A stretch of DNA of 58,275 bases from NCBI GenBank assembly GCA_964373695.1, contig CAYJVT010000004.1, forward strand, positions 1 through 58,275. Reading direction: 5' to 3'. The notes beneath the pieces were generated by a model that was not told where the DNA came from, ran no database searches, and saw nothing but the letters and a program-made list of their open reading frames with translations. Shown one piece after another: positions 7,994-44,650 of the stretch (its first letter is position 1; each line of letters starts with the position of its first letter). A program made the translations under genes and the position numbers. This DNA is from an uncultured archaeon. Lineage in GTDB: Archaea > Aenigmatarchaeota > Aenigmatarchaeia > GW2011-AR5.

Positions 7994-8452
7994 TCACCGG
8001 CGAGCCTCGAAATCGCTTATTTTTCTGGCTCTTCTTCCATGACGCTCTTCGCCGGCGAATGGAGTCCCCAGCCACAATTCGACGGCTTTTATCGCGCTTT
8101 CTGCCTTGACGAAGCGGGCGCCTATGGACAGCACGTTCGCGTTATTGTGTTCCCGTGACAGGGAGACTATCTCATCCGGCCCGCCATAAAAGACTGCGGC
8201 CCTTATGCCCTTCACCTTGTTGGCGGCTATCGCTTCTCCCTGGCCGGAGCCGCCGAAAATTATGCCCCTGTTTCCAGGATGCAGTGCCACTTTTTCCGCC
8301 GCCGGGATTATAAAATCCGGATAATCGTCATCCTTGTCATAAGAATGAGGCCCTACGTCGATGAACTCGCGGCTTTTTTCCGCGAGATATCTTTTCACGG
8401 CCTCCTTCAGCTCATATCCGGCGTGGTCAGAAGCCATGTATATCATGTTCAT
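7994..8452 (-). CDS. rpiB: ribose-5-phosphate isomerase B
   Basis: SDHAGYELKE...GIIFGGSGQGEAIAANKVKGIRAA...REHNNANVLSIGARF matches the RpiB/LacAB family. Confidence 0.9.
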   Translation of the reverse strand: MNMIYMASDHAGYELKEAVKRYLAEKSREFIDVGPHSYDKDDDYPDFIIPAAEKVALHPGNRGIIFGGSGQGEAIAANKVKGIRAAVFYGGPDEIVSLSREHNNANVLSIGARFVKAESAIKAVELWLGTPFAGEERHGRRARKISDFEARR

Positions 8453-8482
8453 TCATCTCCTGTCAGTTTTTTTGACAACAAA

Positions 8483-8494
8483 AATCTTTATATA
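8483..8494 (+). promoter_or_regulatory. candidate BRE/TATA of giant gene 1 (AATCTTTATATA)
   Basis: AT-rich TATA-like box 43 nt upstream of the ATG at 8537. Nearly the same dodecamer precedes the other two giant genes. Confidence 0.4.
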
Positions 8495-8536
8495 CCGCTC
8501 CAATCCATAGTTTTCGTATTGAATTGGAGTGGTTTA

Positions 8537-23800: not shown

Positions 23801-26509
23801 GACATAAACGGGACAGAGACGGGATACGGATGGTTCAGCATCATAAACTTCCAGACCAACACATTCCCCACCAACAGCACAGGCTCCAACAACTATTATT
23901 TCACAGGCACCACGCCCATATACTTCAACGTCACCACCACAAAGAACTGGAAAGGCTCATACGCAGCCGCCGATTACATAAACACGACAGTGGAAGACGG
24001 ATTTGTGAGGACGTGGCAGTCATCAACAAACTCTCCCATCGAGTTCAACTATCCCGAAAATTTCAACATCACGCCACTTAATGTGTCGAACGGCAGCGCA
24101 ATTATCAGCATAAACAAGAGCACTTCATGGCCTTCGGGATGGTATTACGGCGAGCTGACGCTCAAGGACCCAACCAACCTCACCGGAAAAGGCTGGATAT
24201 ATTTCTCAGTGAAGCCGTTCAGAATCAGCACGTCCGGCAACAGCCTGATTTCAACCACTAGAAACCTCACGCTGAACTTGTCCATACTGGAGCCGGAGTA
24301 CTCGCAGGGCACCAGGAGATTTGCGAATTATACAGTGGAAAAGATAACAGAAACCATATGGTCATATACGGGCCGGACGTTCAGGCAGTACAACTTCTCG
24401 CCCACAACCAACTTCACCCAGAACATATCCCTTAATGTCAGCCCGATAAACGGCAGGTGGTCGCCGGGATGGAGGTATATCAGCGTGCTCGTGAAGGACA
24501 ACAACACGAACTCCACCGAGGAGCAGTGGTACTCGTTCCAAGCGCTTCCTTTCCAGACAAGCGTTTCAAGGACGTCGGGGGCCTCCATAGGGCCCAACAC
24601 AAACGTGACGGTCAACGTGACGCTGACTGACCCGATAACAGGGGCCCGGACAACCGGAAACGTTTCGTCCGTGTACTACTGGGGATGGCCTTCGAAGACG
24701 CAGTACAGGTTTGCCGTAGGCACATGTGATTCCCAAATCAATGGCAGCTGCATGATAAACGGAAGCGCCACGCTCAAGATATTGCCGCCGACAGGCGGAT
24801 GGGAAGAAGGATACAGGTATATGTACTTCAACTTCATTGACAGCCTTGACGCCTCGACCACCGTGGAGACGTGGAACAGCATTTACTTCGAGGTCAAGCA
24901 GCCGCTTTCCGGCTACATGTACGCCGTTGACAAAAATGCCAACTATGTCTACAGGTATTCAAACCAGGACAACGTTACGATGTACCTCTACAGCCTGCAG
25001 AACCTCTCAGGCAGCGCAATAAGCGTGAACGTCACAAATGTCCAGTATGCGCAGTCGGAGCCCAACTGCTGGAGCGATTCGTGCAGAAATTACCAGAATG
25101 TTCCATGGTTTGTCGTCACTTACAGCAGCGCTGCATTTTCAGCATATTCCGGCAGCAACATCACCGGGACCGGCTATGTAAGGCTCAACAAGACCGGCAT
25201 CTGGTCAAACGGGGAATATTATATCAGGATAAGTGTCTCGTCCGGCGGCGACACGGCGACCATAAAGAACGGATATTTCAGGGTGGTCGACAACCAGATA
25301 CCTCATGTCACCATCACAAGCCCTGCAGTGGATTCCACCATAACAGGAGCAACACTTGACGTTGCGGCGACGTCCTCAGAGAATGCGCAATGCTGGACGA
25401 CCATATTTGACTACGGAAACTTTTACAGAACCAACTGCGGAAGCCAGGATGGAAATTATTCAGTCCACTGCAACAGCACAAGATACAGCAATGCAACCAC
25501 ATTATATTATGACACCATTTACCCCGGATTCAGGACATATTTAACATCCACCATCACATCGCATGAAAGCAGAACTTTCGGGACGTCAGGCGGCACATCG
25601 CATTCATTTTCAGTGCCTACAACCTACATGGCCAACCAGCATTACGCACTTCAGGTATGGTGTTACGACTCCGACTGGAACTACGGGTACAACACGACAG
25701 TCATCCTTGTGAACAGCACCATTCCTCTTGGTACCGGAATATACGTGCCGGCCAATACGACATATGTTTCGACCAACATAAACCTGAATTATACCGTCAA
25801 CGGCACAAACGTAGACAGATGCTATTACAGGCTCAACGGCGGCTCCATTACGCTGCTGAACAAATGCACCAATGTAAATGAAACCGTTCCCATAGTCGCA
25901 TCGGAGGGCCTGAATAACATAAGGGTTTACGTTAACAACACGGCTGGAGATTCAAATTCAACTATAGTATATTTCAGCGTCAGGAACAACACGGTACCAA
26001 CAAGCGGATTGCTCGTGGCAAGCAACACAACATTCTCGAGGGGAACCTACAACCTCTCGACAGGAATCAACATAACGGCATCCAACATAACCCTTGACTG
26101 CAACCTTGCAGTTCTCCGCGGCAACGGGACAGGGATAGGCATCAATGCGATAGGCTTCAGCGGCCTGAATATAACGAACTGCGACATACTGAACTTCACC
26201 TACGGCATGAGGCTGCAGGGAACCAACCTGACCATCCAGAACAACAGCATCTACAACAACACCGCGGGGATAAACATTACGTCAAACGCCATCGCCAATG
26301 CGACATCGGTCAACATAACACTGAACAACATCTTCAACAACACGCTCTTCAACTTCGTGAACAACCAGAGCGGCAACATATCGATCCCAAGGAACTGGTG
26401 GGGCACATCCAACGTCAGTCTCATGAACGGGACGATATACGACTTTTACAACAACAGCAACTTCGGCCTCGCCAACTTCACCACAATACTTTCGGGGCGG
26501 GTGAGATGA
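20897..26509 (+). CDS. giant secreted sequon-rich surface protein 2 with C-terminal parallel beta-helix (NosD/PbH1-like) domain
   Basis: Signal peptide MRNGTIFLCVIAYVLLFLPFSYAA, with very dense N-x-S/T throughout. The C-terminal ITLDCN..LRGNGTGIGINA..GLNITNCDILNFTYGMRLQGTNLTIQNNSIYNNTAGINITS...NWWG is typical of right-handed beta-helix repeats. No TM anchor. Confidence 0.85.
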   Translation: MRNGTIFLCVIAYVLLFLPFSYAATFYDVHALTSKSAYNINETVVLYGYVLNITSNSTANTTSYLGENSTVSVVIKNSTNSTTASYTLYANLNGSFYSNSTLYNTNVTILAPNSTGSYRINVTYTDPSNATWSSVLPIIVVSKQVDEITISANKAAFSSSESMQLTIRAVQLIGDSALGVNNTAINGTIRRYNDSSIQSRFNCTTSSDGRCYVTLTAPSSVEKYFIEVNNYLGYMSFSVVSFDIDIYVRDSTGTSYRNVFRTGESGLIEVRISSASPSGTYNVTGSIADSSGAGKQNMTSMLLNVSNGFVNSLSFTVNNVFAAGSVYTANATVSDGTNTVTKTIMFEIRDWTFNFAKRKTDSGFEYGYTVFPDTRMFLQVFPTERENSTVIKNLTDANISISLKNTLGIQLSNSSVVYNASCGTIDCYDFNLTAPSAIGDYTISVLLNYSSVSMAQERTIKVTNTLASIFSADSEGAIKELFSPTEYVYIKVSAKNKTSNISISDVDVGTMIYENGTVTSYSQASGNTTNITDSTYEWMWNSSSSLLRMDPPKTGGIYMLEMYANNRSAYATTKFAINPYDVCAQAKATSDTNTVDYWWQFRTTDTIYFQITINEAQNPSGKVLNTSAAQNGTYGIGSACSFDTTRKQAVTNASISISKVLNTDSNREESLNTTSSICQSTDSSGGYLCTAQADDNKWDAGRHAVFFNVVDNNKNTTDKGVGFFETRAFYIYGYPNTWYNKNTDNITFSVKLYEAGSGWWSSGTGLSGTIAVEKINNYGSFGEWIWPPVQYPYNITGLNATTVTNGAGTLSVTVNRTKDGTWKSGNYAVVVKAVVNGETDYGEIWFTVRKWDAYASPVEVSGTNYIYKSSFNSRENISLYVRLSEAGGYSDTGGTYIGNVSIRVKSIQDYSKWPASVISTTSYNSTTATVNTSSPWYSTSGVAQNYPGHVVNITKLGSWDSGYYSVVLDINGTETGYGWFSIINFQTNTFPTNSTGSNNYYFTGTTPIYFNVTTTKNWKGSYAAADYINTTVEDGFVRTWQSSTNSPIEFNYPENFNITPLNVSNGSAIISINKSTSWPSGWYYGELTLKDPTNLTGKGWIYFSVKPFRISTSGNSLISTTRNLTLNLSILEPEYSQGTRRFANYTVEKITETIWSYTGRTFRQYNFSPTTNFTQNISLNVSPINGRWSPGWRYISVLVKDNNTNSTEEQWYSFQALPFQTSVSRTSGASIGPNTNVTVNVTLTDPITGARTTGNVSSVYYWGWPSKTQYRFAVGTCDSQINGSCMINGSATLKILPPTGGWEEGYRYMYFNFIDSLDASTTVETWNSIYFEVKQPLSGYMYAVDKNANYVYRYSNQDNVTMYLYSLQNLSGSAISVNVTNVQYAQSEPNCWSDSCRNYQNVPWFVVTYSSAAFSAYSGSNITGTGYVRLNKTGIWSNGEYYIRISVSSGGDTATIKNGYFRVVDNQIPHVTITSPAVDSTITGATLDVAATSSENAQCWTTIFDYGNFYRTNCGSQDGNYSVHCNSTRYSNATTLYYDTIYPGFRTYLTSTITSHESRTFGTSGGTSHSFSVPTTYMANQHYALQVWCYDSDWNYGYNTTVILVNSTIPLGTGIYVPANTTYVSTNINLNYTVNGTNVDRCYYRLNGGSITLLNKCTNVNETVPIVASEGLNNIRVYVNNTAGDSNSTIVYFSVRNNTVPTSGLLVASNTTFSRGTYNLSTGINITASNITLDCNLAVLRGNGTGIGINAIGFSGLNITNCDILNFTYGMRLQGTNLTIQNNSIYNNTAGINITSNAIANATSVNITLNNIFNNTLFNFVNNQSGNISIPRNWWGTSNVSLMNGTIYDFYNNSNFGLANFTTILSGRVR

Positions 26510-28922: not shown

Positions 28923-29582
28923 ATGAATTTCGAGCGCATGAACTTCGAAGGGGACCCCAACCTCGGCCTGTACGGCTTCGCCACGGACAAATACGTCCTG
29001 ACAGGCATAAACAGGAAGAAGATACTCCGGAAGATGGAGAAAACCCTCAAAGTGAAGCCAATTAGCACCATGATGCTCAACACCGAATTTGTCGGGATAT
29101 TCTGCAAGGGAAACTCCCAGGGAGTCATACTATCTGAAATCATGAAAGGCCATGAGCTCCCTCTGGTCAAAAAAATGTTCGACAAGGTTCTGGTGCTTAA
29201 GACTGACTATTCCGCGCTGGGAAACCTTATACTCATGAACGACAACGGCATAATCATATCGCCACTGATAAAACCCCACGCCAGGGAGATAAAGGAATTC
29301 TTCTCGCTGCCGTGCGAGGCCATGAGCATATCGCGGAGCCAGATAGTAGGAAGCCTCGGATTGGCGACAAACAAGGGATGCCTCGTCCATCCCAGGGCAA
29401 GCGATGCCGAGAAGCGGAAGATAAAGGACGTACTTGGCGTCGGCGTCGACATAGGAACAGTGAATTTCGGTTCCCCGTTCCCGTCTTCGGGCGTCATGGC
29501 AAACAGCAGCGGCTTCATCGCGTCGGAGGAAAGCTCCGGACCCGAATTGGGAAGGATAACCGAGGCGCTGGGTTTTTTGTGA
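28923..29582 (+). CDS. eif6: translation initiation factor 6 (aIF6)
   Basis: FEGDPNLGLYGFATDKYVLTG..., the repeated subdomain pattern and the ~220-aa length match eIF6/aIF6. Confidence 0.9.
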   Translation: MNFERMNFEGDPNLGLYGFATDKYVLTGINRKKILRKMEKTLKVKPISTMMLNTEFVGIFCKGNSQGVILSEIMKGHELPLVKKMFDKVLVLKTDYSALGNLILMNDNGIIISPLIKPHAREIKEFFSLPCEAMSISRSQIVGSLGLATNKGCLVHPRASDAEKRKIKDVLGVGVDIGTVNFGSPFPSSGVMANSSGFIASEESSGPELGRITEALGFL

Positions 29583-29752
29583 TGCATATGACAAGGCATG
29601 TAACCGTATACAGCGGAACCACGGTAGAAAATTACAGGACATGCGCATATGTAGACAATCGCGGAAGAGTAGTCTTTGACAAGGGAAGGGAGCCAAGGCA
29701 TGAGCATCCAAACTTTTATTTTGACCAAGATTTTAATTTAATATTGCAGTGA
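29582..29752 (+). CDS. small hypothetical protein (56 aa)
   Basis: The ATG overlaps the eif6 stop (TGATG) and the stop overlaps the next start. Sequence MHMTRHVTVYSGTTVENYRTCAYVDNRGRVVFDKGREPRHEHPNFYFDQDFNLILQ. No family recognised. Confidence 0.4.
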   Translation: MHMTRHVTVYSGTTVENYRTCAYVDNRGRVVFDKGREPRHEHPNFYFDQDFNLILQ

Positions 29753-30015
29753 TGTTTGCAGACTATTGCGTTGGCGGAATAATCCCATGCCATACACCTC
29801 TTGTAATGGAAGGCAGAGTAAGCGAAGAAGACATGACTTACGGCTTTTTGTGGGAAGGAAGAAAGTTTCCTATTGACACAATATGGATACCGAAAACGGG
29901 GTTTGACAGGCAAGATGTGAAATATTTTATGACAGAAAACTTACAATGGCAGTTTGGGTGCTTGATGCCGTATGATATTTTAAGCTCTGAAACGATCGAG
30001 TTATCATGCGGATAG
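29752..30015 (+). CDS. small hypothetical protein (87 aa)
   Basis: Translationally coupled on both sides: TGATG upstream and a 10-nt overlap with the NUDIX gene. No family recognised. Confidence 0.4.
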
Positions 30016-30440
30016 ACGAAAAGACGTGGCAGAAGATACGAAAGCTCGTGCCGATACCCTCGGTTGACGGCGTCGTAATAAAGGACGGCAAAGTCCTGCT
30101 CCTGAAGCGAAATGTCAAGCCTACAGGCTCTTGGTGCCTGCCGGGAGGCCGCATAGAGTTCAGGGAAAGCGCTGAAAGCGCGGCGAAACGCGAGGTTTTT
30201 GAGGAGACAGGCCTCCGAACGAAGGTAGACAGGCTTGTGGGGGTATATTCCGAGCCTAAAAGAGACAAGAGATGGCACGCCGTCTCCATCGCATATATCA
30301 TGAAGCTCACAGGAGGCAAGTTGCGAATAAACGATGAATCGACAGACGCCAGATTCTTCAGGAGACTGCCGCCAAAAATGGCTTTCGACCACGCGAAGAT
30401 GGTACGTGATGCTTTTAAAATCTTGAAAACAAAGCGATAA
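30006..30440 (+). CDS. NUDIX hydrolase
   Basis: Complete Nudix box [24 protein letters not shown] (GX5EX7REUXEEXGU). Confidence 0.9.
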
Positions 30441-30442
30441 CA

Positions 30443-30925
30443 ATGAAGAACGAGAAGGAACTGCAGCAGAAATACCTTTACGGGCAGCTGCTGAAGCAGC
30501 AGGCGACGGCCCTCATAGAGGAAAAACAAGCAATAGAGGCCCGCCTGGGCGAGGTGGTCATGACGAAAGAGGCCATAAACCGGATAGGCGGCACGGCCAA
30601 GGGAGACGTAATATGGTCGCCATTGGGCAGCGGCGCGTTCATGATATCCAATGTGGCCGACACCAAGAGCGTCCTGGTTAATGTAGGGGCCGGCGTCCTT
30701 GTCAAGACAAACCACGACAACGCGCTCTCGATACTTGAAGGCAGGATGAACGAGCTTCAGGAAGCCGATACCCAGATAACTGCGGAACTCAACAGGTTCG
30801 CACAGCAGCTGGGCGCCCTTGAAAGCGAGATGCAGCAGATGGTGCACGAAGAGGAGCGCAAAAAAGGGATGAAAGACTCCCATAAGCACAAGCACGATGA
30901 CAAGGTCAAGGGAACCGGCGGGTAA
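30443..30925 (+). CDS. pfdA: prefoldin alpha subunit
   Basis: A coiled coil, then the double beta-hairpin region VIWSPLGSGAFMISNVADTKSVLVNVGAGVLVK, then a second coiled coil. Its position upstream of ftsY is the conserved one. Confidence 0.85.
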   Translation: MKNEKELQQKYLYGQLLKQQATALIEEKQAIEARLGEVVMTKEAINRIGGTAKGDVIWSPLGSGAFMISNVADTKSVLVNVGAGVLVKTNHDNALSILEGRMNELQEADTQITAELNRFAQQLGALESEMQQMVHEEERKKGMKDSHKHKHDDKVKGTGG

Positions 30926-31285: not shown

Positions 31286-34174
31286 ATGTTCGGCTCGCTC
31301 AGGAAGAAGCTGCACGAAGCTGTGAAGAAGGTATCGAAGGCCGTTTCTGAAGACAGGCCCGTCCAAGAGAAAGATGTTCCTGACATCACAAAAGAGCAGC
31401 CCTTGCAAAAGGAAATACACGGGATGGAGGAAAGGGCAAAGGACATCCTCCTTGACTTTGAAAAACTCCAGGAGAAGGAAGTCATTCTTCCAAAAGAACC
31501 TTCTCCAACTCCGCTCGAAGAGATGGAGGAAAAGGAAGACAAAATACTGATGGAAAAGGAAAAGCTTGACGCGATGACCCAGAAGAATACCCGTAAGCCG
31601 GAAACAAGGACTGCCCCGCAAAAAGAATCCTTTATTCCAGAGATGACAGACTTCGAGAAGCACGAGCTCATGGCCGAAGAGGGCAAGAAGAGCCTTCTCG
31701 GAGGCCTCATGAAGAAGGTCAGTGAGAAGCGCCTCGAGGAAAAGGACGTGGAGAAGGTGGCAAAGGAGCTCCACATGACGCTCCTTGAGAACGACGTTTC
31801 CATGGAGACGGCCGACAAGATATCGGATGACCTGAAGAAGGAGCTTGCCGGAAAGAGCGTTCCGAGGGGGAAGATAGAAGACACCATAAAGGACGCCCTC
31901 AGAAACTCCATGCTAGACGTCCTGAGGCAGGAAAAGCCTGACATAATGAGGCTTGTCAGAGAAAAGAGAGGCGAGCCGTTCGTTATCGTGTTCCTAGGAT
32001 TCAACGGCACTGGCAAATGCGTTTCGGGCGATACACTTATTCCTCTAGCCAGTGGTGCAATTGCATCGATAAAAGACCTTTATGAAAGAGCCAGACTAAA
32101 TGGCGAGTCTGTTGTAGAAGATGGGTATGTAGTTAATAACCCGTCACTGGAGGTTTTTTCAACTAATCCGTATAATCTTAAAGTTGAACGAGTTAAGGCA
32201 CAAAATATATGGAAGCTTAAAAAAAATAAAGTACTTCATGTCTGCTTAAACAATGGACAGGATATAAAAGTAACTCCGGAACATCCCTTCTTCGTTCTCA
32301 AATCCGGCAGTATCTCACAGAAACGCGCTGATGAAATTACCAGAGAAGATTATGTAATGGTGCCGAGAGTTGTAATGCCTGAAAATAAGCCTTTATCCAA
32401 GATGGAACTATTAGACATGATAAGCAATAGAAAATTATTCGTGGTTTCCGAAGTTTTGGTTAACGATGCCTACGATATAATGACAGAGATTTTCGGCTCT
32501 TTGGAAAAAGCTTTCCATGAATTGTCCGAAGAAACCGACTGGATGACATTCAGATATTTCCGGAAGAACAGAAAAATACTCCCGTCGACTATAATCTTAA
32601 AGCTTGCAAAAATTAACGACAAATTCGCTGAAAATATTGAGAATGAAAAATTCAGCATCAAATTCGATAGAAGTAAGCCAATATTGATGCCAGATTTTAA
32701 TCATGATTTTTATCAATGGCTTGGACTTTTTTATGCTGAAGGGCATATGGACAGGAATTATGTTGAATTTACAAACTCAGAAGATTGGCTATTAGAAATA
32801 TTCTCCAATCTTACGAGAAATATTTTCGGCGTAGATAACATTCTTATAAAACCTGATTTACGCAATTTAACCGTAAAGAAATCGCTGATAGCCAATAGAA
32901 CTTTGTGCTATTTTGTTGAGAAGGCATTGGGCGTACCTCGCTACAATAAAAGCTCGTCAATGGCGCTTCCCGAATGGTTGATGTGCGATTCTGATGATCT
33001 TATAGCATCATTTTTGAGGTCTTATTGGGAGGGAGACGGCTCTGTAGAATTGAAGCACAGGTCTCTTGAAGCATCAACTGCAAGCGAAAAATTTGCCCGG
33101 CAACATTCTCTATTACTTTTACGGTTTGGTATTATATCTTCATTTTCCAAGAAGATTATAAACAATAAAAACTACTATAGAATTTATATAGTTGGCAAAG
33201 GGAAACTAAAATCTTTCAATGAAAAAATAGGTTTTCTTGGAGCTATGAAGCGTCAAAGGCTTGAAAATCTTATATTGATGAATTCTCAATTTGAGAAAAC
33301 CGAGCTTATTCCAATGCAGTCTGAATACCTGAGAAATCTTCGGCTGTCCGCTGGTATGCTTCAGCAGGATTTAGCTAGTTCGTTGAATATAGGACCAAGC
33401 CTTCTCAGCCAATATGAGCTCGAATCTTATCAAGTTTCAATTCCCGTAGAAAAGATAGCTAATCTGGCACTGAAATTTTCCTCGCCATTTCTGGAAACAC
33501 TGGCAAATGCAGACGTCAGATGGATAAAGGTAAGAAATGTCGAAGAAGTCTTAGATTCTGAAGAGTGGGTATACGATTTTACAATACCGGTTTACCATAA
33601 TTTTGTTGCCAATAATTTCATTATTCATAATACGACAAACCTCTCAAAGATGGCAAGCATGATGAAGGAATACAGGCCTGTCCTGGCTGCAGCCGACACT
33701 TTCCGCGCGGCAAGCATAGAGCAGCTGGAGGAGCATGGCAGGCGACTCGGAATGAAGGTGGTGAAGCACACTTACGGCTCGGACTCGGCATCAGTCATAT
33801 TCGACGCCAAGAAGCACGCGATGGCATCCGGAAGCAGGCTGGTGCTTGCAGACACGGCAGGCAGGAGCCACGCCAACGTGAACCTGATGGACGAACTGAA
33901 GAAGATATGCAGGGTCAACAAGCCTGACATGAAGATACTGGTCCTGGACTCCCTGACAGGCAACGACATATACGACCAGGTGAAACTGTTCAATGATGCA
34001 GTAGGCATAGACGGAATAATCCTTTCGAAGGCCGACGTCTACGACAAGGGCGGCGCGGCGCTGTCGGCCGCGCACACTTCAAAAAAGCCGATACTATACC
34101 TCGGGACCGGCCAGAACTACGGCGACCTGAAGGAATTTGACCCGGAAGAAATCGTCAAAAACCTGCTTGAATAA
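31286..34174 (+). CDS. ftsY: signal recognition particle receptor FtsY, containing an intein
   Basis: A charged A-domain is followed by an NG domain. The P-loop is split as GFNGTGK | intein | TTNLSKMA. Downstream motifs are AADTFRAA, DTAGR and SKAD..KGG. Confidence 0.9.
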   Translation: MFGSLRKKLHEAVKKVSKAVSEDRPVQEKDVPDITKEQPLQKEIHGMEERAKDILLDFEKLQEKEVILPKEPSPTPLEEMEEKEDKILMEKEKLDAMTQKNTRKPETRTAPQKESFIPEMTDFEKHELMAEEGKKSLLGGLMKKVSEKRLEEKDVEKVAKELHMTLLENDVSMETADKISDDLKKELAGKSVPRGKIEDTIKDALRNSMLDVLRQEKPDIMRLVREKRGEPFVIVFLGFNGTGKCVSGDTLIPLASGAIASIKDLYERARLNGESVVEDGYVVNNPSLEVFSTNPYNLKVERVKAQNIWKLKKNKVLHVCLNNGQDIKVTPEHPFFVLKSGSISQKRADEITREDYVMVPRVVMPENKPLSKMELLDMISNRKLFVVSEVLVNDAYDIMTEIFGSLEKAFHELSEETDWMTFRYFRKNRKILPSTIILKLAKINDKFAENIENEKFSIKFDRSKPILMPDFNHDFYQWLGLFYAEGHMDRNYVEFTNSEDWLLEIFSNLTRNIFGVDNILIKPDLRNLTVKKSLIANRTLCYFVEKALGVPRYNKSSSMALPEWLMCDSDDLIASFLRSYWEGDGSVELKHRSLEASTASEKFARQHSLLLLRFGIISSFSKKIINNKNYYRIYIVGKGKLKSFNEKIGFLGAMKRQRLENLILMNSQFEKTELIPMQSEYLRNLRLSAGMLQQDLASSLNIGPSLLSQYELESYQVSIPVEKIANLALKFSSPFLETLANADVRWIKVRNVEEVLDSEEWVYDFTIPVYHNFVANNFIIHNTTNLSKMASMMKEYRPVLAAADTFRAASIEQLEEHGRRLGMKVVKHTYGSDSASVIFDAKKHAMASGSRLVLADTAGRSHANVNLMDELKKICRVNKPDMKILVLDSLTGNDIYDQVKLFNDAVGIDGIILSKADVYDKGGAALSAAHTSKKPILYLGTGQNYGDLKEFDPEEIVKNLLE
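32018..33631 (+). mobile_element. 538-aa intein with LAGLIDADG homing-endonuclease and HTH domains in the FtsY P-loop
   Basis: It begins CVSGDTLIPL (block A), has TPEH (block B), then LGLFYAEGHM and LRSYWEGDGS (LAGLIDADG x2). An XRE-like HTH follows (LRLSAGMLQQDLASSLNIGPSLLSQYE). It ends VYDF...FIIHN followed by Thr+1. The DNA is visibly more AT-rich than the exteins. Confidence 0.85.
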
Positions 34175-34640: not shown

Positions 34641-34736
34641 GATTGGAATTTTCATTATTGAAGAGGGGTGTCAGACATCTTTGGGATTTTTTCGTGCGCA
34701 TTGTCGGCCGCGGGCAACGACATAAGATACAACGGG

Positions 34737-37700
34737 ATGAAGGGACTGAAGAGCGTAGGCATCTTCCTTGTCGTGGCGTCGTCCATAATTGCATTCTCGC
34801 TGTCAGTCCTGGCCTCGACATCGTCAAATTTCACGAAAGGCGACATACCGGCGTCGTATTTCGGCGCGTCGCAGCACAATCTCGTGTTCAATGTCACGCT
34901 TCCCGACGGCACCAACGGCGCCGCAGAGGACACGCTTCTCAGGGACGGCTCAGCAGAGACGTGGTCCGGATATGCACTGAATTCTTTCAACTCAACGACG
35001 AAATTCGCAGGCGGCTCCTACACAGGCTCTGAAGCGATAGTAGTTGACTTCAATGACAATGGATTTTTCAACGCGTCCGAAGGCGATTATGCCGTGGTGA
35101 GTTCTGCGCCAGCCGATGGCACAGCAGTGAGCAACGCGTGGGGGAACATAAAATTCTCCGGCACCGCCTTGTTTGACGCGACATCCGACGTATACGACGA
35201 CACCGCCAACGCGGGGATTGTCGACAAGAGAGTGGACCGCGTCTCAAGCATATTGTTCTCCAACAGCGGCACGGCGACAGACATCGATATAAAACTGCGT
35301 GTGTGGAACGACACCGACAGCAACGGGATATTCGACAGGTTCATAGACAAGGAGATAGGCCCGTCATCCGGCATAACAGCCGTAAGCTCCAGCCAGTGGA
35401 ATCTTAGCAACGGGTTTGAGATACCTTTGGGCGGCCAGAGGATATTCGTGACGGTGGATACGTCGACTCCAACAAGCGGCAGGACAATTCGGATAGGAAT
35501 CCCGCAAAACGGCGTCTACGTCGCCTCGAACAACGACGGACCCACGGATGCCGCAGTGACGAACGCTTTCACGCAGACTATAGACATAATAACGCCTTCA
35601 CTTACGGCAGTCTCGATAACGCCTCCTTCACCTGTCAGGACCAACACACTACTGAACGCGACGTGCACTGACGCTTCCGCCCTTACAGTAACCTATAACA
35701 TTGATTCAGCCGCCAACCTGAGCCTTTCGCAGACCGGAGGCTCGTTCACGGCCACTGTTGACATCTCCTCCATTCAGGACGGAGCGCATACCATAAACGT
35801 GTTCTGCTCCGACCCTGCGAACAACACGGCAACCAGCGGCCTCTCGTTTACAGTCGACAAGACCCAGCCGGCTGTATCCATAACCCCTCTTTTCTCCACG
35901 GCAATAAACAACACAGCCATGACGGACAACCTCAGCTTCAGCGGCTCGTTCTCCGACAGCACGACCAGCATACAGTCCGGCGACTACTCGCTCGACGGCG
36001 GCGCCCCGGTCTCGCTGCCGGCGCTCAACGGGAGCTACGGGAACGACATGAACCTGAACTATTCATTCACGCTTTCATCGGTTGCTGACGGGCTGCACAC
36101 CGTATCCGTCAGGACGTTTGACGCTCCAGGCAACCTAGGAAATGCATCTTACGGATTCTTCGTGGACACCGAAGTGCCTGTTTCCTCTGTGAACCCGGCA
36201 TCGGCCTACAAGACATCAAGGGTTTTCCAGCTGCCCTATTCGTCTAACGATTCCGTTCAAACGTCAGGAATACAGAACGTGACTTTATATTATAGGATAA
36301 ACCAGTCCAATCCTTACATTGCATACGCAAACACGACAAACGGCACTTTCATCTTTGACGCCACGGCCCTAGGCGACGGCTTCTATGAATTCTATACATT
36401 GGCAAGGGACAATGCCGGGAACGTCGAAGCGGTGCCGGCAGCTCCAGATGCGAACACAACAATAGACACTGTAATGCCGATTATAGCAAACCTTGCATTT
36501 GTCGAGACGCCCGAATATACGAACGGCACCCAGGCATGGTTCAGGCAGGCATCCCACGCCGCGCTTTCGTTCGTTTCAGCCGTTTCAGACATGACTTCCG
36601 GCCTGCAGCAGTGCAATGCCACATGGGACTCGAGTTCAGACGCGGATGACAAACTCCTGGTGACGAACCTCACAGGAAATGCAACTTTTGTAGGCGTGAA
36701 CGACGATGCAGATGCAACTGTTAACGTAACAGTATCGTGCACCGACAAAGCCGGGCTTGATAACAGGTCTTCAGTGATAATAATGCTTGACGGCACGGCG
36801 CCGTCGATATCAGGGCTCCAGTGGAACGAAACCTCCAGCTACGCTCACGTGAATTTCACTGGCGGGCTTGTGTACAGCTCTGCAATGCCGGCGCCGATAA
36901 CCGTTTCAGCCAGAGGCTCCTCAAGTGACGCAGGCTCCGGCTTCAGAAACGCCAATTTCTCAGCGGTGTTTGGAGACGGCCCTGACAACAGCACCTCGTC
37001 ATCGTGGGAGGCCAATTATACCATAAATCCGTCAGACAGCGGCAACGGCACGATGAACGTCACGGTGTTCGACAATGTCGGCAACCCGCTATCGCAGCTG
37101 CTTAACTTCGCCGAGGACAATGCACCGCCATTGATAACTCTGAGCTCGCCCAACGGCGGCGAACTCCTGAGAGGAGGCTCCGTCTTCACCATAACATGGA
37201 CTCCCGCATCCGACGAGAACGGAATCGCTACGAACAATATCACGATAGAGTACTCCACAGGCTCCTCGTGGACGCTTGTTGCATCCGAACTGCCCAATTC
37301 CGGTTCATACTTATGGGCTATTCCGTCGATAGATTCGTCTTCGGTGACGATAAGGATAAACGCCTCCGACGCTGTCCAGAACGTTGGAAGCGATTCCAGC
37401 AACTCCGTCTTTGCCATAGACTCGGCAGCGCCTTCGATACTTCTGGCGTTCACCAACGACACCGACTCTGACGGTAAGATAGACCGGATAGAGCTCAACT
37501 TCAGCGAGTCCGTCAATGTTCCTTCGCTGTCAGGAGTGAGCATAGCAGGCTACAGCACTGAAGGGACGTACTCCCTTACCAACATAAGGGATCTTTCGAT
37601 ATACCTGCAGGAAGCCTCCGTTGACACCAATGCGACACCGCAGATAACGTTCCTCTCCTCGCTTATAGCCGACCTGTCCGGCAATCTCATACAAAACCAG

Positions 37701-40700
37701 AGCATAACGCCGCAGGACAAGGCAAGGCCCATCCTGCTCGCGGCAAGGACGAACGACACAAACCTCAACGGAAAGATAGACGTTCTCATGCTGAACTTCA
37801 GCGAGCCTGTGAACAACATTGTCGCGAACCTCATCTCAGCGGCGGACGGGTTTTCCATAAGCGGCTACTCAAACCCGTCATTCATATCACCCTCAAAGGT
37901 TCTGGCGAACAATACCGGCGTGCTTAACGTGACGTCCACTAGCACCCTGATGCTGCAGCTAGGGTTCACGGAAGGCTCTTCATACGACACCGGCGCGACG
38001 GCAACGATGAATGCCCTGGCGGGCTATCTTGCGGACGCGGCAGGAAACCCCCTGGTAGCGGCTTCGAGCCTTGCAGTTTTGGACGGCGCGCCGCCTTTCA
38101 TGGCAAACGCCGCGACATCCGACGCGAACGGCAACGGCAAGATAGACAACATAACAATCACGTTCACAGAAGGGTTGCAATTCGATACCATAAACTCTGG
38201 CGGCGGCGACTTTTCGTTACTGCCTTCTTACACCATTCTAGATGTAAATAAAACCGGCTTCGCCGTAGGCAAGCTCGTATTAAGCTTATCAGAACAGACG
38301 TACTTTGACGGCAACGAAACCCCTATAGTCTCGTTTGTGCCGGGCCAGACTCTGAAGGACAGCAACGGAAACAACATGACTTCGGGCTCGGTGACGCCTG
38401 CTGACGGGATAAGGCCTGTCGTCACAACGACTTCAGGCATCGGCATGCTGCTCGGGCCGGGCGATCACAGCTTCAACGCAACGTTCAGCGAGAATGTTTC
38501 TGGTCAGTCCATATATTTCGGGTTACCCAGCGTGTTTTCATTGATATCCGGCACGTTCAACTCATCTTTCTGGAACGGCACGATAAGGCTGAATTCGTCT
38601 GTCCCTGACGGAACTTATACGATAAACATCACAGGAGCTTCAGACACTTCGGGCAACAGGATGCTTGACAACACATCTTTCTCCTTCACATCCGACCAGA
38701 CTCCCCCTGCTATAACATTCCTCAGCCAGACGCCGCAGAACAATGACGTCAGGTTTGAAAACAACACACTGATCAACGCAACGATAACAGACGCAAGCCA
38801 GATAAGCAGCGTAACGGTTCTATGGAACAGCGTCCTCTACAACCTCAGCAACTCATCGGGCAATTATTACGCCAATATCACCAGCCAGCCCGACGGCGCA
38901 TACAGCTTTAACATAACCGCAAATGACACGCTGGGCAACTCGAGGACAACGGAAACGAGGAATATAACGATATTCGCGTCCTATCCCAGAGTAACACTGA
39001 TAATTCCCACTCCTGCCAACGGCACGTATGCAAACTCACCTGTCTTCATTGTAAACGCAACTGCAATAGGCGCTGGTGTAGCTGCGGCTTACATCAATAT
39101 TTCCGGCTCTTCATTCTGGATGACGAACACCACGGCCGGCGTATTCAATGCAACAGTCAGCCTTCCTGACGGAACTTACATGTACAACGTGACTTCGCTC
39201 AATGCGAGCGGCGGGATAATCAACGTATCAGAAACCCGCTTCATAACAATAGACACCATAATTCCTGTGATAAACAGCGTTTCCGTGTCTTCTGACAGGG
39301 CGGGTTATTTCAACCAGACTGGCCTGAACTCATACACAGTGAACAACCTTCTTGGACAGGGCGGCGGGCAAAACCTGACGTTCACAGTTAATGCCACGGA
39401 TTCATCGCCTTTGAACGTTTCCCTGACAAGCGGGCCGCAGGTAATCCCGTCAACAGGATTTCCTTATATCATGACGCTCCAGATAACCCCGTTCTATGCA
39501 GGCGTCATAAACGTGAGCATAAACGTTACGGATGCCGCCGGGAACCTTAACACGACAAACATCACAATAGGCATAGACAACGGGCCGCCGCAGATCAATA
39601 GGATAACAATCGATAACACGCCTCCCGGAATAACGTCGTTCGCCGGCAACACGCTTTTCTTCGGGAACATAACGTCGGCCCAGTTCAACATATCCGGGAA
39701 CGCGTCCGATGCCAACGGCCTCGGCTCGCTCTTCTCGAATTCGCCTTACCCTAACCAGACGTCATTCAACTCGGCAACCGGCAACTGGAGCATCCTCCTG
39801 TCCCTCAATGAAAATTCCACCAGCGGAATCGTGGCGATTACAGTGACCGACATAGTCGGCAACAGCGCAAACCTGTCGCTGACAGTGACAAAGGACAGCA
39901 ACAGCCCGACTGCGCCTGTCCTTTCATCCCTGCCGCAGTTCGTATCATCCTATCCTGCACTCTCATGGGCGAGCTCAACTGACACGGAATCCGGAACAAG
40001 AGGCTACATAGTCATGAGGTCGGCGGACAATGCGACTTTCATTAACGCGTCTAGCGTCCTCTCCAACTCCACGACAAATTTCACTGACACGTCGTCGCCC
40101 GAAGGCCTATTGTTCTACATGATAAAGGCAATCGACAACGTGAACAACACCAGAAGCTCAAACACCGTCAGCACGACTGTAGACTTCTCGGCGCCTGCAA
40201 TAACGTCGGTGAATGCCACAAAGGTCAACGACATCGGCACCGTCGTGAACATCACTGCAAACATAACCGATACGATAGGAGTGAATGAAGTAATCATCAA
40301 TGCAACGGTCAGAAACCAGACTAATATAATATTTACAACCTACATGACGAAAGTGCTTGGTACTTACAATATCACGTGGAACACGACAAACCTTACAGAA
40401 GGATTCTATTACATAGGGATAAACGCCACCGATCTGTTCAACCGGACAACAAGCGTGGACAAGGTTCTTGTCATACTGCTGAGAGCGCCTTCAACAACGC
40501 TTGCCACGCCGCAGTCAATATTCACCAATTCGTCCGTTACGACAGTGGCCAACACCACAAGCAGCGTGAACACCGACGTCGGCCTGGCGCTTGACTTAAT
40601 AACAAATTCATCATCGGCGGGAAGCATCAATGTCCTGTCATACAATACGAATCCGGCGGGAAGCACCTCAGGCGTCACGTCGCTGCTTGCCCTCAGCAAA

Positions 40701-41522
40701 TACTTCGACATAATCCTGAGCGACAGCCTCAATTCCACGCTGTCGAACGCGACCATAAGGATAAGCTACACCGATGCGGAACTGGCGGCAGCCGGGATAG
40801 ACGAGTTAAGCCTCAAAATATACTTGTGGACAGGCTCAACATGGCAAGCCCAGACAAGCACAGTCGACGCCGCCGGCAACACAGTCTCGGCAACAGTCCC
40901 GCATTTCAGCATTTATTCGACATTCGGCTCGGCACCTCCCGCAACGCCTGCGGCTCCTTCCGTTTCCGGAGGAGGGGGCGGTGGAGGCGGAGGCGGCTTC
41001 GCAGCATGCCTGGAGAACTGGGTGTGCACCGACTATTTGGCATGCTCAGTATACGGAACGCAAAAAAGAACATGCGTTGACAAGAACAGATGCGGCACCA
41101 TAAGAGGCAAGCCAGCAGAGAGCCGGTCATGCACATTCACTGAGACGCCAGTTTGCGGCAACGGCATAGTTGAAACCGGCGAGCAATGCGATACCATCGA
41201 CCAGGCGTGCACGAGCGCCGAAGGCTATGTAGGAAAGAAGGCGTGCTCAACCACGTGCAACCTTGGCATATGCATCCCACTTGAGAATTGCGGCGACGGC
41301 ATCTGCAACGGCCCTGAAACATCCCTGACTTGCTCGTCGGACTGCAGGCCCGGACAGACAGGCGCAGGCATACCAGTGACAGGGCAAGCGATATCGGTCG
41401 TGGCCGACCCGCTGCTTTCCACCGTCATCATCGCAGGTATTGCAGCCATTCTTTTCACCGCATGGAACATAAGAAACAGGAGAAAATCCGCGGCCGACAA
41501 GGAAAACAAGAAAAAAAGATAG
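34737..41522 (+). CDS. giant sequon-rich surface protein 3 with Cys-rich stalk and C-terminal TM anchor
   Basis: - The ATG at 34737 gives the signal peptide MKGLKSVGIFLVVASSIIAFSLSVLAS. The ORF is open from the GTG at 34668.
- Many Ig/FN3-like segments.
- PGF-pre-PGF-like segment (SLKIYLWTGSTWQAQ...VPHFSIYSTFG).
- Gly10 linker.
- Cys-rich repeats (CGNGIVETGEQCD, CGDGICNGPETSLTCSSDC).
- TM helix and basic tail. Confidence 0.85.
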   Translation: MKGLKSVGIFLVVASSIIAFSLSVLASTSSNFTKGDIPASYFGASQHNLVFNVTLPDGTNGAAEDTLLRDGSAETWSGYALNSFNSTTKFAGGSYTGSEAIVVDFNDNGFFNASEGDYAVVSSAPADGTAVSNAWGNIKFSGTALFDATSDVYDDTANAGIVDKRVDRVSSILFSNSGTATDIDIKLRVWNDTDSNGIFDRFIDKEIGPSSGITAVSSSQWNLSNGFEIPLGGQRIFVTVDTSTPTSGRTIRIGIPQNGVYVASNNDGPTDAAVTNAFTQTIDIITPSLTAVSITPPSPVRTNTLLNATCTDASALTVTYNIDSAANLSLSQTGGSFTATVDISSIQDGAHTINVFCSDPANNTATSGLSFTVDKTQPAVSITPLFSTAINNTAMTDNLSFSGSFSDSTTSIQSGDYSLDGGAPVSLPALNGSYGNDMNLNYSFTLSSVADGLHTVSVRTFDAPGNLGNASYGFFVDTEVPVSSVNPASAYKTSRVFQLPYSSNDSVQTSGIQNVTLYYRINQSNPYIAYANTTNGTFIFDATALGDGFYEFYTLARDNAGNVEAVPAAPDANTTIDTVMPIIANLAFVETPEYTNGTQAWFRQASHAALSFVSAVSDMTSGLQQCNATWDSSSDADDKLLVTNLTGNATFVGVNDDADATVNVTVSCTDKAGLDNRSSVIIMLDGTAPSISGLQWNETSSYAHVNFTGGLVYSSAMPAPITVSARGSSSDAGSGFRNANFSAVFGDGPDNSTSSSWEANYTINPSDSGNGTMNVTVFDNVGNPLSQLLNFAEDNAPPLITLSSPNGGELLRGGSVFTITWTPASDENGIATNNITIEYSTGSSWTLVASELPNSGSYLWAIPSIDSSSVTIRINASDAVQNVGSDSSNSVFAIDSAAPSILLAFTNDTDSDGKIDRIELNFSESVNVPSLSGVSIAGYSTEGTYSLTNIRDLSIYLQEASVDTNATPQITFLSSLIADLSGNLIQNQSITPQDKARPILLAARTNDTNLNGKIDVLMLNFSEPVNNIVANLISAADGFSISGYSNPSFISPSKVLANNTGVLNVTSTSTLMLQLGFTEGSSYDTGATATMNALAGYLADAAGNPLVAASSLAVLDGAPPFMANAATSDANGNGKIDNITITFTEGLQFDTINSGGGDFSLLPSYTILDVNKTGFAVGKLVLSLSEQTYFDGNETPIVSFVPGQTLKDSNGNNMTSGSVTPADGIRPVVTTTSGIGMLLGPGDHSFNATFSENVSGQSIYFGLPSVFSLISGTFNSSFWNGTIRLNSSVPDGTYTINITGASDTSGNRMLDNTSFSFTSDQTPPAITFLSQTPQNNDVRFENNTLINATITDASQISSVTVLWNSVLYNLSNSSGNYYANITSQPDGAYSFNITANDTLGNSRTTETRNITIFASYPRVTLIIPTPANGTYANSPVFIVNATAIGAGVAAAYINISGSSFWMTNTTAGVFNATVSLPDGTYMYNVTSLNASGGIINVSETRFITIDTIIPVINSVSVSSDRAGYFNQTGLNSYTVNNLLGQGGGQNLTFTVNATDSSPLNVSLTSGPQVIPSTGFPYIMTLQITPFYAGVINVSINVTDAAGNLNTTNITIGIDNGPPQINRITIDNTPPGITSFAGNTLFFGNITSAQFNISGNASDANGLGSLFSNSPYPNQTSFNSATGNWSILLSLNENSTSGIVAITVTDIVGNSANLSLTVTKDSNSPTAPVLSSLPQFVSSYPALSWASSTDTESGTRGYIVMRSADNATFINASSVLSNSTTNFTDTSSPEGLLFYMIKAIDNVNNTRSSNTVSTTVDFSAPAITSVNATKVNDIGTVVNITANITDTIGVNEVIINATVRNQTNIIFTTYMTKVLGTYNITWNTTNLTEGFYYIGINATDLFNRTTSVDKVLVILLRAPSTTLATPQSIFTNSSVTTVANTTSSVNTDVGLALDLITNSSSAGSINVLSYNTNPAGSTSGVTSLLALSKYFDIILSDSLNSTLSNATIRISYTDAELAAAGIDELSLKIYLWTGSTWQAQTSTVDAAGNTVSATVPHFSIYSTFGSAPPATPAAPSVSGGGGGGGGGGFAACLENWVCTDYLACSVYGTQKRTCVDKNRCGTIRGKPAESRSCTFTETPVCGNGIVETGEQCDTIDQACTSAEGYVGKKACSTTCNLGICIPLENCGDGICNGPETSLTCSSDCRPGQTGAGIPVTGQAISVVADPLLSTVIIAGIAAILFTAWNIRNRRKSAADKENKKKR
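37446..38178 (+). repeat. three tandem ~100-120-aa domain repeats inside giant gene 3
   Basis: Each repeat opens with TNDTDSDGKIDRIELNFSESVN (about 37446), TNDTNLNGKIDVLMLNFSEPVN (about 37743) or TSDANGNGKIDNITITFTEGL (about 38108). These are D/N-x-D/N-G-K-I-D calcium-loop-like motifs. Confidence 0.7.
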
Positions 41523-43318: not shown

Positions 43319-44650
43319 ATGCTGAAGGGACTGTCGGCGAAGCTCAGGGAAAGCCTAGAAAAGTTAGCGAGGAGCGGTGCGGACAAAGAAGCGGTCGAGG
43401 AGATGCTGCGGGACATGCAAAGGAGCCTGATATCCGCAGACGTCGATGTCAGGACTGTTTATGATATGACGGAAGCCCTGCGCAAGAGATGCCAGGGCGA
43501 CATGCTTCCTGGGATGACGAGGAAGGAGCACGTCATAAAGGCCGTCTATGAGGAGCTCACGAGGATAATGGGCGAGAAGAAGCCTGACGTGAGCCTGGGC
43601 AGGAAGAAAATACTTCTGGTGGGGCTGTACGCCTCCGGAAAGACGAGCACGGCGGCCAAGCTGGCCAGATTCTACAAGAAAAAGGGGCTGAAGCCGGCCC
43701 TGGTGGCATGCGACACCATAAGGCCTGCCGCATACGAGCAGCTGCAGCAACTGGCGGAAAAGATAGAAGTGCCGTTCTACGGGGAGAAGGGGGAGAAAGA
43801 CTCTGCAAGGATACTCTCCAATGCGCTGAAGAAATTTGACGAAGACGTCATAATAATAGACTCGGCCGGAAGGAATGCTCTGGAGTTGGAGCTCATAGAC
43901 GAGGTGAAGAGACTCAATGAAACGGCCAGGAAGAGCGTGAAGGAAGATGAGTCGATGGAGAAAATACTCGTCCTACCGGCCGACATAGGCCAGGCCGCCA
44001 AAGTCCAGGCAGCATCATTTCACGAAGCTCTCGGCATAACGGACGTGATAGTGACGAAGCTCGACGCGACCGCGAAAGGCGGCGGGGCTCTCACAGCATG
44101 CTACCAGACCGGCGCCAAGGTGAAGTTCATAACCGTCGGCGAAGGCGTCGACGACCTTGAAATGTACAACCCGGAGAAATTTGTCTCAAGGCTGATAGGA
44201 TTTCCAGACCTTGAAACGCTCCTTGAGAAGGCCAGGTCCAGCATCGACGAGGACAAGGCCAAAAAGATAATAAAGGGAGACTTCGACATAGAGGACTTCT
44301 ACTCGCAGGTAGAAGGCGTCAGGGGGATGGGCTCGCTGTCGCAGATAATGGACACCATGGGCCTGGGGAAGATGGCGAAAAAGGTACCCAACCTTGACGT
44401 TCAGGAAGCGAAGATGAAGAAATGGAAATACGCCATACAGAGCATGAGCACGGAAGAAAAGGCGAACCCCGAGAGCATAAACTCGTCGCGCATAAGGCGC
44501 ATAGCAAAAGGCTCCGGATGCACCGAGGCCGAGGTCAGGGAGCTCCTGAGCAACTACCAGAAGTCGAAGAAGATGATGAAGATGATCTCCCCCGGCAAGC
44601 TCAAAAGAGGCGGCATGGCGGGCCTCTTCAGGCAGTTCGGCTTAAGGTGA
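43319..44650 (+). CDS. srp54: signal recognition particle protein SRP54
   Basis: N domain, G domain (GLYASGKTSTAAKLA, DSAGR, TKLD..AKGG) and a Met-rich M domain (MGSLSQIMDTMGLGKM...KKMMKMI). Confidence 0.95.
   Translation: MLKGLSAKLRESLEKLARSGADKEAVEEMLRDMQRSLISADVDVRTVYDMTEALRKRCQGDMLPGMTRKEHVIKAVYEELTRIMGEKKPDVSLGRKKILLVGLYASGKTSTAAKLARFYKKKGLKPALVACDTIRPAAYEQLQQLAEKIEVPFYGEKGEKDSARILSNALKKFDEDVIIIDSAGRNALELELIDEVKRLNETARKSVKEDESMEKILVLPADIGQAAKVQAASFHEALGITDVIVTKLDATAKGGGALTACYQTGAKVKFITVGEGVDDLEMYNPEKFVSRLIGFPDLETLLEKARSSIDEDKAKKIIKGDFDIEDFYSQVEGVRGMGSLSQIMDTMGLGKMAKKVPNLDVQEAKMKKWKYAIQSMSTEEKANPESINSSRIRRIAKGSGCTEAEVRELLSNYQKSKKMMKMISPGKLKRGGMAGLFRQFGLR

Follow-up and report, generated by a model that had tools for sequence, protein, structure and literature searches.

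A predicted class-1 intein with a nested LAGLIDADG endonuclease and an XRE-type helix-turn-helix domain in the P-loop of an Aenigmarchaeota FtsY

How could the signal recognition particle (SRP) receptor of an archaeon bind GTP when the GTP-binding motif of its gene product is interrupted by 538 additional residues? This question is raised by the ftsY gene at positions 31286..34174 (plus strand) of a 58,275-nucleotide stretch of archaeal DNA (contig CAYJVT010000004.1 of assembly GCA_964373695.1), which is called the window below. The gene encodes a precursor of 962 codons plus stop. The insert splits the G1 (Walker A) motif between Lys244 and the following Thr (GFNGTGK/TT, with the slash marking the insertion point here and below). 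Since the P-loop is split between Lys and Thr, the 962-aa precursor would not be a functional GTPase until spliced. P-loops are classic insertion sites of inteins. The answer proposed here is that the insert is a canonical class-1 intein with a nested LAGLIDADG endonuclease and an XRE-type helix-turn-helix (HTH) domain. It lies in frame in a single, syntenic Aenigmarchaeota ftsY, and both splicing and homing are predicted from its sequence. We place the probability of this reading at about 0.9.

The borders of the insert are sharply defined. GFNGTGK occupies residues 238-244 of the precursor, and Cys245, which is Cys1 of the insert, begins at nucleotide 32018. The insert ends with ...FIIHN at residue 782 (nucleotide 33631), after which the FtsY sequence resumes as TTNLSKMA. 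An earlier sequence-only reading of the window had placed a 538-aa insert at 32018-33631 between these two motifs, and its coordinates were reproduced exactly. The N-extein (aa 1-244; 31286..32017, plus strand) contains a charged N-terminal region, the N domain, with a Pfam SRP54_N match at aa 138-205, and the first half of G1, ending in ...GFNGTGK. The C-extein (33632..34174, plus strand) starts with Thr at +1 (TTNLSKMA...) and provides the remaining G domain of FtsY and the stop codon, matching positions 15-195 of the SRP54 profile.

In silico splicing yields a 424-aa product that matches TIGR00064 (ftsY) in one stretch with 290 bits (cut-off 260.7), compared with 267 bits for the unspliced precursor. 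The product covers positions 1-195 of the 196 of Pfam SRP54, and removal of the insert restores GxxGxGKTT, as had been proposed. The host protein is an FtsY: it has SRP54_N, the SRP54 GTPase domain and a charged N-terminal extension, and the M domain (SRP_SPB) is absent. Alignment with intein-free archaeal FtsY gives a contiguous NG domain with no gap at the junction. The intein-free protein P0198 is 93% identical over the NG domain, and its length of 424 aa equals that of the spliced product.

The insert itself (intein aa 1-538, codons 245-782; 1614 bp, plus strand) begins with Cys1 and ends with His537-Asn538. Its N-terminal splicing domain, HINT-N (intein aa 1-116; 32018..32365, plus strand), contains Cys1 and the block B motif TPEH (aa 86-89; nt 32273-32284), matches NCBIfam intein_Nterm over aa 1-93 and appears as a beta-strand domain in the structural model. 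HINT-C (intein aa 500-538; 33515..33631, plus strand) is placed by its intein_Cterm match, its conserved residues and the model, and contains VYDFT at aa 518-522. The expected Hint domains are well supported by profile scores. Pfam Intein_splicing spans residues 9-538 with 100.8 bits (cut-off 35.8), and intein_Nterm (TIGR01445) scores 56.3 bits (cut-off 24.5). NCBIfam intein_Cterm (TIGR01443) lies at its cut-off, with 15.6-18.9 bits against 15.6. NCBIfam models with embedded inteins also gave partial matches, of which IF-2 (PRK14845) was the best. The HINT parts, Cys1, TxxH, His-Asn and Thr at +1, in an insertion that can be removed in frame, assign the element to class 1. The motifs listed in the sequence-only reading, from the Cys start and TPEH through LGLFYAEGHM and LRSYWEGDGS to the HN-Thr end, were all recovered. 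Its statement that the requirements for splicing are present agrees with the finding of Cys1, TPEH, VYDFT, His-Asn and Thr+1.

The LAGLIDADG endonuclease domain occupies intein aa 215-403 (core 213-403 in the model; 32660..33226, plus strand) and matches Pfam LAGLIDADG_3 with 77.7 bits (cut-off 22.5). Two motifs are present on the plus strand, LGLFYAEGHM (intein aa 235-244; nt 32720-32749) and LRSYWEGDGS (intein aa 333-342; nt 33014-33043). Each has its own acidic residue, E241 and D340 respectively, as in two-motif LAGLIDADG proteins. An AlphaFold2 model of the intein, made with seven alleles, has a mean predicted local distance difference test score (pLDDT) of 87.7 and a predicted template modelling score (pTM) of 0.87. 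When this model was compared with the PDB using Foldseek, the TliVMA intein (7QSS) came first (E = 5e-27, template modelling (TM) score 0.83 on target), followed by PI-TkoII, PI-PfuI and the PhoVMA intein. A sequence profile search of the PDB also placed the TliVMA chains first, with E = 1e-36 for the endonuclease domain. In the profile alignment, E241 and D340 align with the two catalytic Asp residues of TliVMA.

An HTH domain of the XRE/Cro-C1 type, at intein aa 435-496 (33320..33505, plus strand), lies between the endonuclease and HINT-C. The sequence-only reading had named an XRE-like HTH at this place. The profile of this sub-domain matches more than 40 XRE-family PDB chains (best E = 4e-5), including ImmR, a PbsX-family regulator, MBF1, controller proteins of restriction-modification systems, HipB, SinR and the 434 and P22 repressors. 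AlphaFold2 predicts a five-helix bundle with helices at 435-445, 449-455, 460-467, 477-487 and 490-496. With a separate model of the HTH (pLDDT 74), the top 50 Foldseek matches are all XRE-type HTH proteins. The TM scores on target are 0.80 for SinR and 0.77 for ImmR, with a probability of 1.00 but an E-value of only ~1e-2. Because of the profile matches to more than 40 XRE chains and the exclusively XRE-type fold matches, the label is considered right. The Pfam scores count against it: HTH_3 reaches 21.3-21.4 bits, below its gathering score of 23, HTH_19 reaches 21.3 bits against 30.2, and HTH_31 is likewise below cut-off. These sub-threshold matches lie at intein aa 436-474. In one allele (P0006), 11 residues of the HTH are deleted near the predicted recognition helix (alignment A1, columns ~727-737), which suggests that the accessory domain is decaying in that lineage.

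A helical insert of ~98 aa (intein aa 117-214; 32366..32659, plus strand) separates HINT-N from the endonuclease. It is modelled as helices at 128-209 with a pLDDT of 82-96. Conservation is lowest in this part of the intein (mean pairwise identity 0.29), and nothing credible was matched in the PDB profile search or in Pfam scans of all seven alleles.

This order of domains resembles that of the TliVMA intein, found at the VMA-b site of the V-ATPase A subunit of Thermococcus litoralis (PDB 7QSS/7QSU; PMC8966425). TliVMA also lies in a Walker A P-loop and consists of HINT-N, a LAGLIDADG endonuclease, an HTH-like accessory domain and HINT-C. The two inteins differ in host, an ATPase in one case and a GTPase in the other, and in length (429 aa for TliVMA), and they share ~21% identity over the structural alignment. 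Where the window intein has its helical insert, TliVMA has a loop of 28-32 residues. Furthermore, the accessory domain of the window intein is recognisably XRE-type by sequence, unlike that of TliVMA. Accessory domains between the endonuclease and IntC have been described, and those of TliVMA and PI-TkoII are HTH-like (Beyer & Iwai 2022, PMC8966425). The architecture with an accessory HTH is therefore already known. The TliVMA accessory domain widens cleavage specificity (PMC8966425). The window intein is thus conventional in structure, chemistry and architecture.

The insert and its flanks contain every residue of the standard four-step class-1 pathway. In the proposed pathway, an N-S acyl shift would occur at Cys1, and Thr+1 would attack the thioester in a trans-esterification. 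Asn538 would then cyclise and release the 538-aa intein. Finally, an O-N shift would join the exteins into the 424-aa FtsY with an intact GFNGTGKTT.

Homologous inteins at the same place indicate which of these residues are kept. A search with the intein recovered homologous inteins from seven FtsY proteins, with full-length identities of 38-67%. Four of the seven have NCBI names, and all four come from Aenigmarchaeota metagenome-assembled genomes (MAGs). Their public records bear the names 'signal recognition particle receptor subunit alpha' or 'LAGLIDADG family homing endonuclease, partial'. The insertion site is identical in the eight FtsY precursors, and all eight have Thr at +1. The seven alleles with a complete intein, at 39-67% identity, agree in C1, T86, H89, E241, G242, D340, G341, D520, H537 and N538, and C1, T86 and H89 are invariant in all eight. 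H537-N538 followed by Thr+1 is kept in every allele that reaches the C-terminal junction.

The site is used more widely than these alleles. An intein at GK/C...HN/TT is present in at least 15 further FtsY genes or protein clusters. These comprise the protein records P0001-P0007, P0052, P0053 (the protein of locus L005), P0055, P0057, P0065 and P0079, and, beyond the protein records, loci L003, L040 and L065. A profile search of 1.84 billion cluster representatives returned 708 relatives at E <= 1e-30, and P0052, P0053, P0055, P0057, P0065 and P0079 are the additional FtsY hosts among the best 150 of these. A scan of species-representative genomes found FtsY-intein loci L001-L005, L040 and L065. 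Their hosts are three Aenigmatarchaeota, two unclassified archaea, one Hadesarchaea and one Nanoarchaeota MAG. The sequence-only reading had suggested that the site might be unusual or undescribed. No report of an archaeal FtsY intein was found, as detailed below, but with at least 15 other FtsY records the site is not unique.

The composition of the insert is distinct from that of its host gene. Its G+C content is 0.368, whereas the N-extein has 0.505, the C-extein 0.547 and the window as a whole 0.496, which confirms the AT-richness seen previously. The G+C content changes in a sharp step at each border. Such steps would also be expected if AT-rich foreign DNA had been mis-joined into ftsY during assembly. 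This is hardly credible, since the borders lie on exact codon boundaries at Lys/Thr with the frame kept, and the same codon is the insertion point in at least 15 independent assemblies or protein clusters. Chance or artefact was rejected on this recurrence.

Selection was examined in a codon alignment of the inteins. The proportions of nonsynonymous (pN) and synonymous (pS) differences over the whole intein are 0.20 and 0.76 against L001, and 0.30 and 0.77 against L002. Across all intein domains, pN is 0.10-0.43 and pS is ~0.76. Against L001, pN is 0.22 in the endonuclease (pS 0.77), 0.19 in HINT-N and 0.10 in the HTH. Since synonymous sites are saturated, it can be stated that pN is far below pS, but a ratio is not given. 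Because this holds in every domain, purifying selection acts on all parts of the intein, the endonuclease and the HTH included, and not on the splicing domain alone.

The same data bear on whether the insert could be dead, that is, whether ftsY is a pseudogene or the HINT-like domain does not ligate the exteins. The reading frame is open over 962 codons, Thr+1 and His-Asn are present, and the splicing residues are invariant across alleles. The exteins are 93% identical to functional-looking orthologues, and the gene is in its canonical position. A dead insert is very improbable, and both forms of it were rejected on the conserved catalytic residues and the purifying selection on the intein.

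The predicted mobility of the element is best seen in close relatives. The closest sampled FtsY proteins (seven, 66-93% identity) all lack the intein. In addition to P0198, these relatives include P0199 and P0200, which are intein-free and 91% identical over the NG domain. The orthologues at 91-93% identity are from Aenigmarchaeota. None of the best 120 FtsY matches is long enough to contain an intein. Since intein-bearing FtsY proteins are at most 69% identical to the window extein, the distribution of the intein is patchy. At the nucleotide level, the intein-free loci L081-L084 are 83-86% identical to the spliced window gene and colinear with it, and the junction is ungapped. Close relatives thus differ precisely by the presence or absence of the 1614 bp. 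The empty ftsY site of L084 reads GGATTCAACGGAACAGGGAAA immediately before the insertion point and ACGACCAACCTCTCGAAGCTC immediately after it. The gene order of L084 is also that of the window, where eIF6 (28923-29582) and prefoldin alpha (30443-30925) precede ftsY. The order eIF6, prefoldin alpha, ftsY is the canonical neighbourhood of archaeal ftsY.

The G+C content at third codon positions (GC3) is 0.35 in the intein and 0.74 in the C-extein. The nearest intein allele is that of L001 (67% amino acid identity), whose locus has a G+C content of ~37%. Since the closest orthologues lack the intein, this copy looks imported from a lower-G+C relative, and these sequence features fit a recent transfer from a donor of low G+C content. 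A few synonymous states near the site are common to the window and the intein-bearing locus L002; they are too few to interpret.

Import of this kind would be brought about by homing. The predicted target of the free intein is a stretch of ~20-40 bp in an empty ftsY, centred on the codons of the P-loop. The LAGLIDADG core would cut the empty allele, with additional DNA contacts made by the HTH, and recombinational repair from the intein-bearing copy would insert the 1614 bp. Cleavage of the intein-less allele is a prediction, with indirect support from the presence/absence polymorphism, the contrast in composition and the purifying selection.

Several points weigh against a recent import by an active element. 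A co-conversion tract is not evident, and the identity profiles against L081 and L084 have no local dip at the junction. The nearest sampled intein allele is just 67% identical, so it fixes neither the donor nor the date of transfer. Inteins are at or below the G+C content of their host locus in 11 of 12 other loci, usually by far less than here, and the low G+C content could come partly from a general AT bias of such inteins. The conservation of the endonuclease could reflect a structural mutualism between HINT and endonuclease, as raised for other inteins (PMC8966425), instead of active homing. Finally, we infer the occurrence of splicing and DNA cleavage only from residues and their conservation.

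Structural mutualism is also central to an alternative in which the intein splices but its endonuclease is inactive. The element would then be a fixed, vertically inherited passenger at a late stage of the homing cycle, with the endonuclease and the HTH kept for the sake of the splicing fold. For P-loop VMA inteins, such mutualism has been documented, as have degenerate endonucleases (PMC8966425). Among the FtsY alleles, intein identities rank in roughly the same order as extein identities, which is compatible with some vertical descent, and the HTH deletion in P0006 also fits a passenger. We nevertheless consider this alternative unlikely. Every allele with a complete intein keeps both catalytic acids and their flanking Gly residues, unlike PhoVMA, where they are lost. 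A pN of 0.22 in the endonuclease is close to the 0.19 of HINT-N. Moreover, the orthologues at 91-93% identity lack the intein, and the difference in GC3 argues for a recent arrival and not for long residence.

A further possibility is that the intein serves its host as a conditional switch. Splicing, and with it SRP-receptor activity, would be tuned through Cys1 by redox state, temperature or another signal, and such a role may coexist with selfish mobility. An intein located in the P-loop necessarily leaves the precursor inactive, and Cys1 could in principle be sensitive to redox state. For P-loop inteins, conditional splicing has been proposed (for example PMC6195587 and PMC4760082). However, nothing specific in the sequence favours a switch, close relatives do without the intein, and its patchy distribution is as expected of a parasite. 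This role is improbable. The account of a spliced and mobile class-1 intein is retained, and its relatives at other P-loops can be considered.

The paralogous SRP54 gene of the window (43319..44650, plus strand) encodes N, G and M domains, and its P-loop GLYASGKT is uninterrupted (43622..43645, plus strand). The sequence-only reading had noted that this P-loop is free of an intein. That is correct for the window (43622-43645), but many other archaea have a related intein exactly there. These SRP54 inteins lie at the equivalent codon (GL[FY]GxGK/CVH...HN/TT), and the loci that rank next after the FtsY inteins are almost all of this type. Their hosts are MAGs of Micrarchaeota, Woese-, Pace-, Nano- and Iainarchaeota and Thermoplasmatales. 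Examples include loci L006-L039 (for instance L006:3001-4809 and L026:3001-4770) and the proteins P0067, P0072-P0075 and P0085-P0088. The SRP54 inteins align with the window intein over the full length at 26-33% identity and share its overall architecture, although they form a clade of their own. They are ~55 aa longer, with a median of 594 aa against 537 aa for FtsY inteins, and have an extra, winged-helix-like segment after the HTH (Pfam HTH_45, E = 0.07 only). Their helical insert and HTH-like segment are recognised by eye only.

All intein-bearing SRP54 sites that were found read GK/TT. The window SRP54 P-loop reads GLYASGKTS (43622-43648), with Ser in place of the second Thr. Its site, GGGCTGTACGCCTCCGGAAAG before and ACGAGCACGGCGGCCAAGCTG after the point equivalent to the insertion, has 26 of 48 bases in common with the ftsY site. 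The limited match and GK/TS may be why the site is empty. In addition, the middle Gly that is usual in SRP54 proteins is replaced by Ala in the window P-loop.

Related inteins are also found in other hosts, which were recognised by flanking motif only. They are IF2 (GHVDHGK/TT), SMC-like (GPNGxGK/SN), secretion-ATPase-like (GGTGSGK/TS) and MCM-like (...AGL/T) proteins, and their inteins sit at or beside nucleotide-binding motifs. The P-loop intein of IF2 (aIF5B; PRK14845, NF011418; for example P0154, P0155 and L070) likewise lies in the G1 motif of a translation-related GTPase. Its model is the best intein-bearing NCBIfam match of the window intein (134.9 bits). The two differ in host and are ~25% identical. 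Six proteins of 1750-2400 aa (P0054, P0058, P0062, P0089, P0191 and P0195) have 6-9 separate stretches that match the intein profile, and these genes may each contain several related inteins.

A neighbour-joining tree of 77 inteins (517 columns, Kimura distances, 200 bootstraps) shows that the inteins cluster by host. The eight Aenigmarchaeota-type FtsY inteins group with 78% bootstrap support, all FtsY inteins except that of L040 with 50%, and the SRP54 inteins together with L040 with 93%. FtsY, SRP54 and IF2 inteins form a group at 79%. When IF2 is left out, the group of FtsY and SRP54 inteins has 44%, and the view of these two as exclusive sister groups was dropped at this bootstrap value.

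The exception in this tree, L040 (L040:762-2534, JBBSXH010000034.1), is an FtsY gene of a Nanoarchaeota MAG with an SRP54-type intein of 591 aa. Its N-extein is FtsY-like, with the N-terminus MFGFLKNKL and a charged region of ~130 aa ahead of the N domain. In BLAST it matches the window FtsY at 5e-20 and the window SRP54 at 5e-4. The host assignment depends on the N-extein, since a run of N interrupts the C-extein. The intein groups with the SRP54 inteins of L026, L028, L029 and L035 at 100% bootstrap. Its identity to these SRP54 inteins is 56%, compared with 35% at most for FtsY-type inteins. Furthermore, 33 of the 42 bases that flank it match the SRP54 site of L028. L040 is best read as a probable jump of an intein from SRP54 to FtsY.

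These relationships raise the question of whether there is one hitherto undescribed lineage of P-loop inteins specific to the GTPases of co-translational targeting and translation (FtsY, SRP54 and aIF5B), common in DPANN and Thermoplasmatota, that moves between alleles and between paralogous P-loops. We regard the chances of such a lineage as about even. If it is real, it would be a natural prokaryotic example of homing between paralogues, possibly aided by an XRE-type domain that relaxes the choice of target, a role proposed for the accessory domain of TliVMA.

A parallel is seen in a eukaryote. According to a figure legend in Gallot-Lavallée et al. (2023, PMC10710043), the SRP-receptor intein of the fungus Rhizophagus is reported to be related to an IF-2P intein, from which the authors infer intragenomic transfer. 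In the same paper, spread from P-loop to P-loop and between paralogues is proposed for eukaryotic inteins. The host family is the same as that of the window intein, but the organism is eukaryotic, and the likeness is one of host family. The pairing of SRP receptor and IF-2P in Rhizophagus parallels the grouping of FtsY, SRP54 and IF2 inteins.

No report of an archaeal FtsY or SRP54 intein was found in the full-text literature or in the text of Novikova et al. 2016; InBase, subscription journals and the supplement of that survey were outside the scope of this search. NCBIfam 'exception' models for intein-containing proteins exist for GyrA, RtcB and Tes, and none for FtsY or SRP54 appeared in the scans. 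The sequences are already public, although they are unrecognised as FtsY or SRP54 inteins. The novelty is therefore limited. What we did not find described is the archaeal FtsY host and the wider lineage of SRP54 and FtsY inteins.

The remainder of the window adds some detail to this setting. No open reading frame (ORF) of 80 aa or more is present in the other frames of the insert. A hidden Markov model built from 77 related inteins and compared with the six-frame translation of the window finds only the ftsY intein, and no second one. In intein-free relatives a NUDIX gene lies between eIF6 and prefoldin (L084:3909-4340 and L081:1021-1452). The corresponding interval of the window (29583-30442) contains a 201-aa ORF on the minus strand, the only ORF scanned there, which has no Pfam match. 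Three giant ORFs are present, all on the plus strand, at 8279-13438 (1719 aa), 20897-26509 (1870 aa) and 34668-41522 (2284 aa). The end of the last one combines a poly-Gly run, a Cys-rich segment and a hydrophobic anchor with basic residues after it, and this protein appears surface- or adhesin-like. A homologous gene of 1848 aa precedes the same gene cluster in L084.

The FtsY intein does not overturn current understanding. The window ftsY should be annotated as an intein-containing precursor, and SRP GTPases are added to the P-loop hosts of inteins. The FtsY, SRP54 and IF2 inteins offer a compact natural system in which to study how an endonuclease jumps between similar, non-allelic P-loops and what role an accessory HTH has. 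In this archaeon with a reduced genome, the only visible SRP receptor of the cell would need protein splicing, which may make it a point of vulnerability or regulation.

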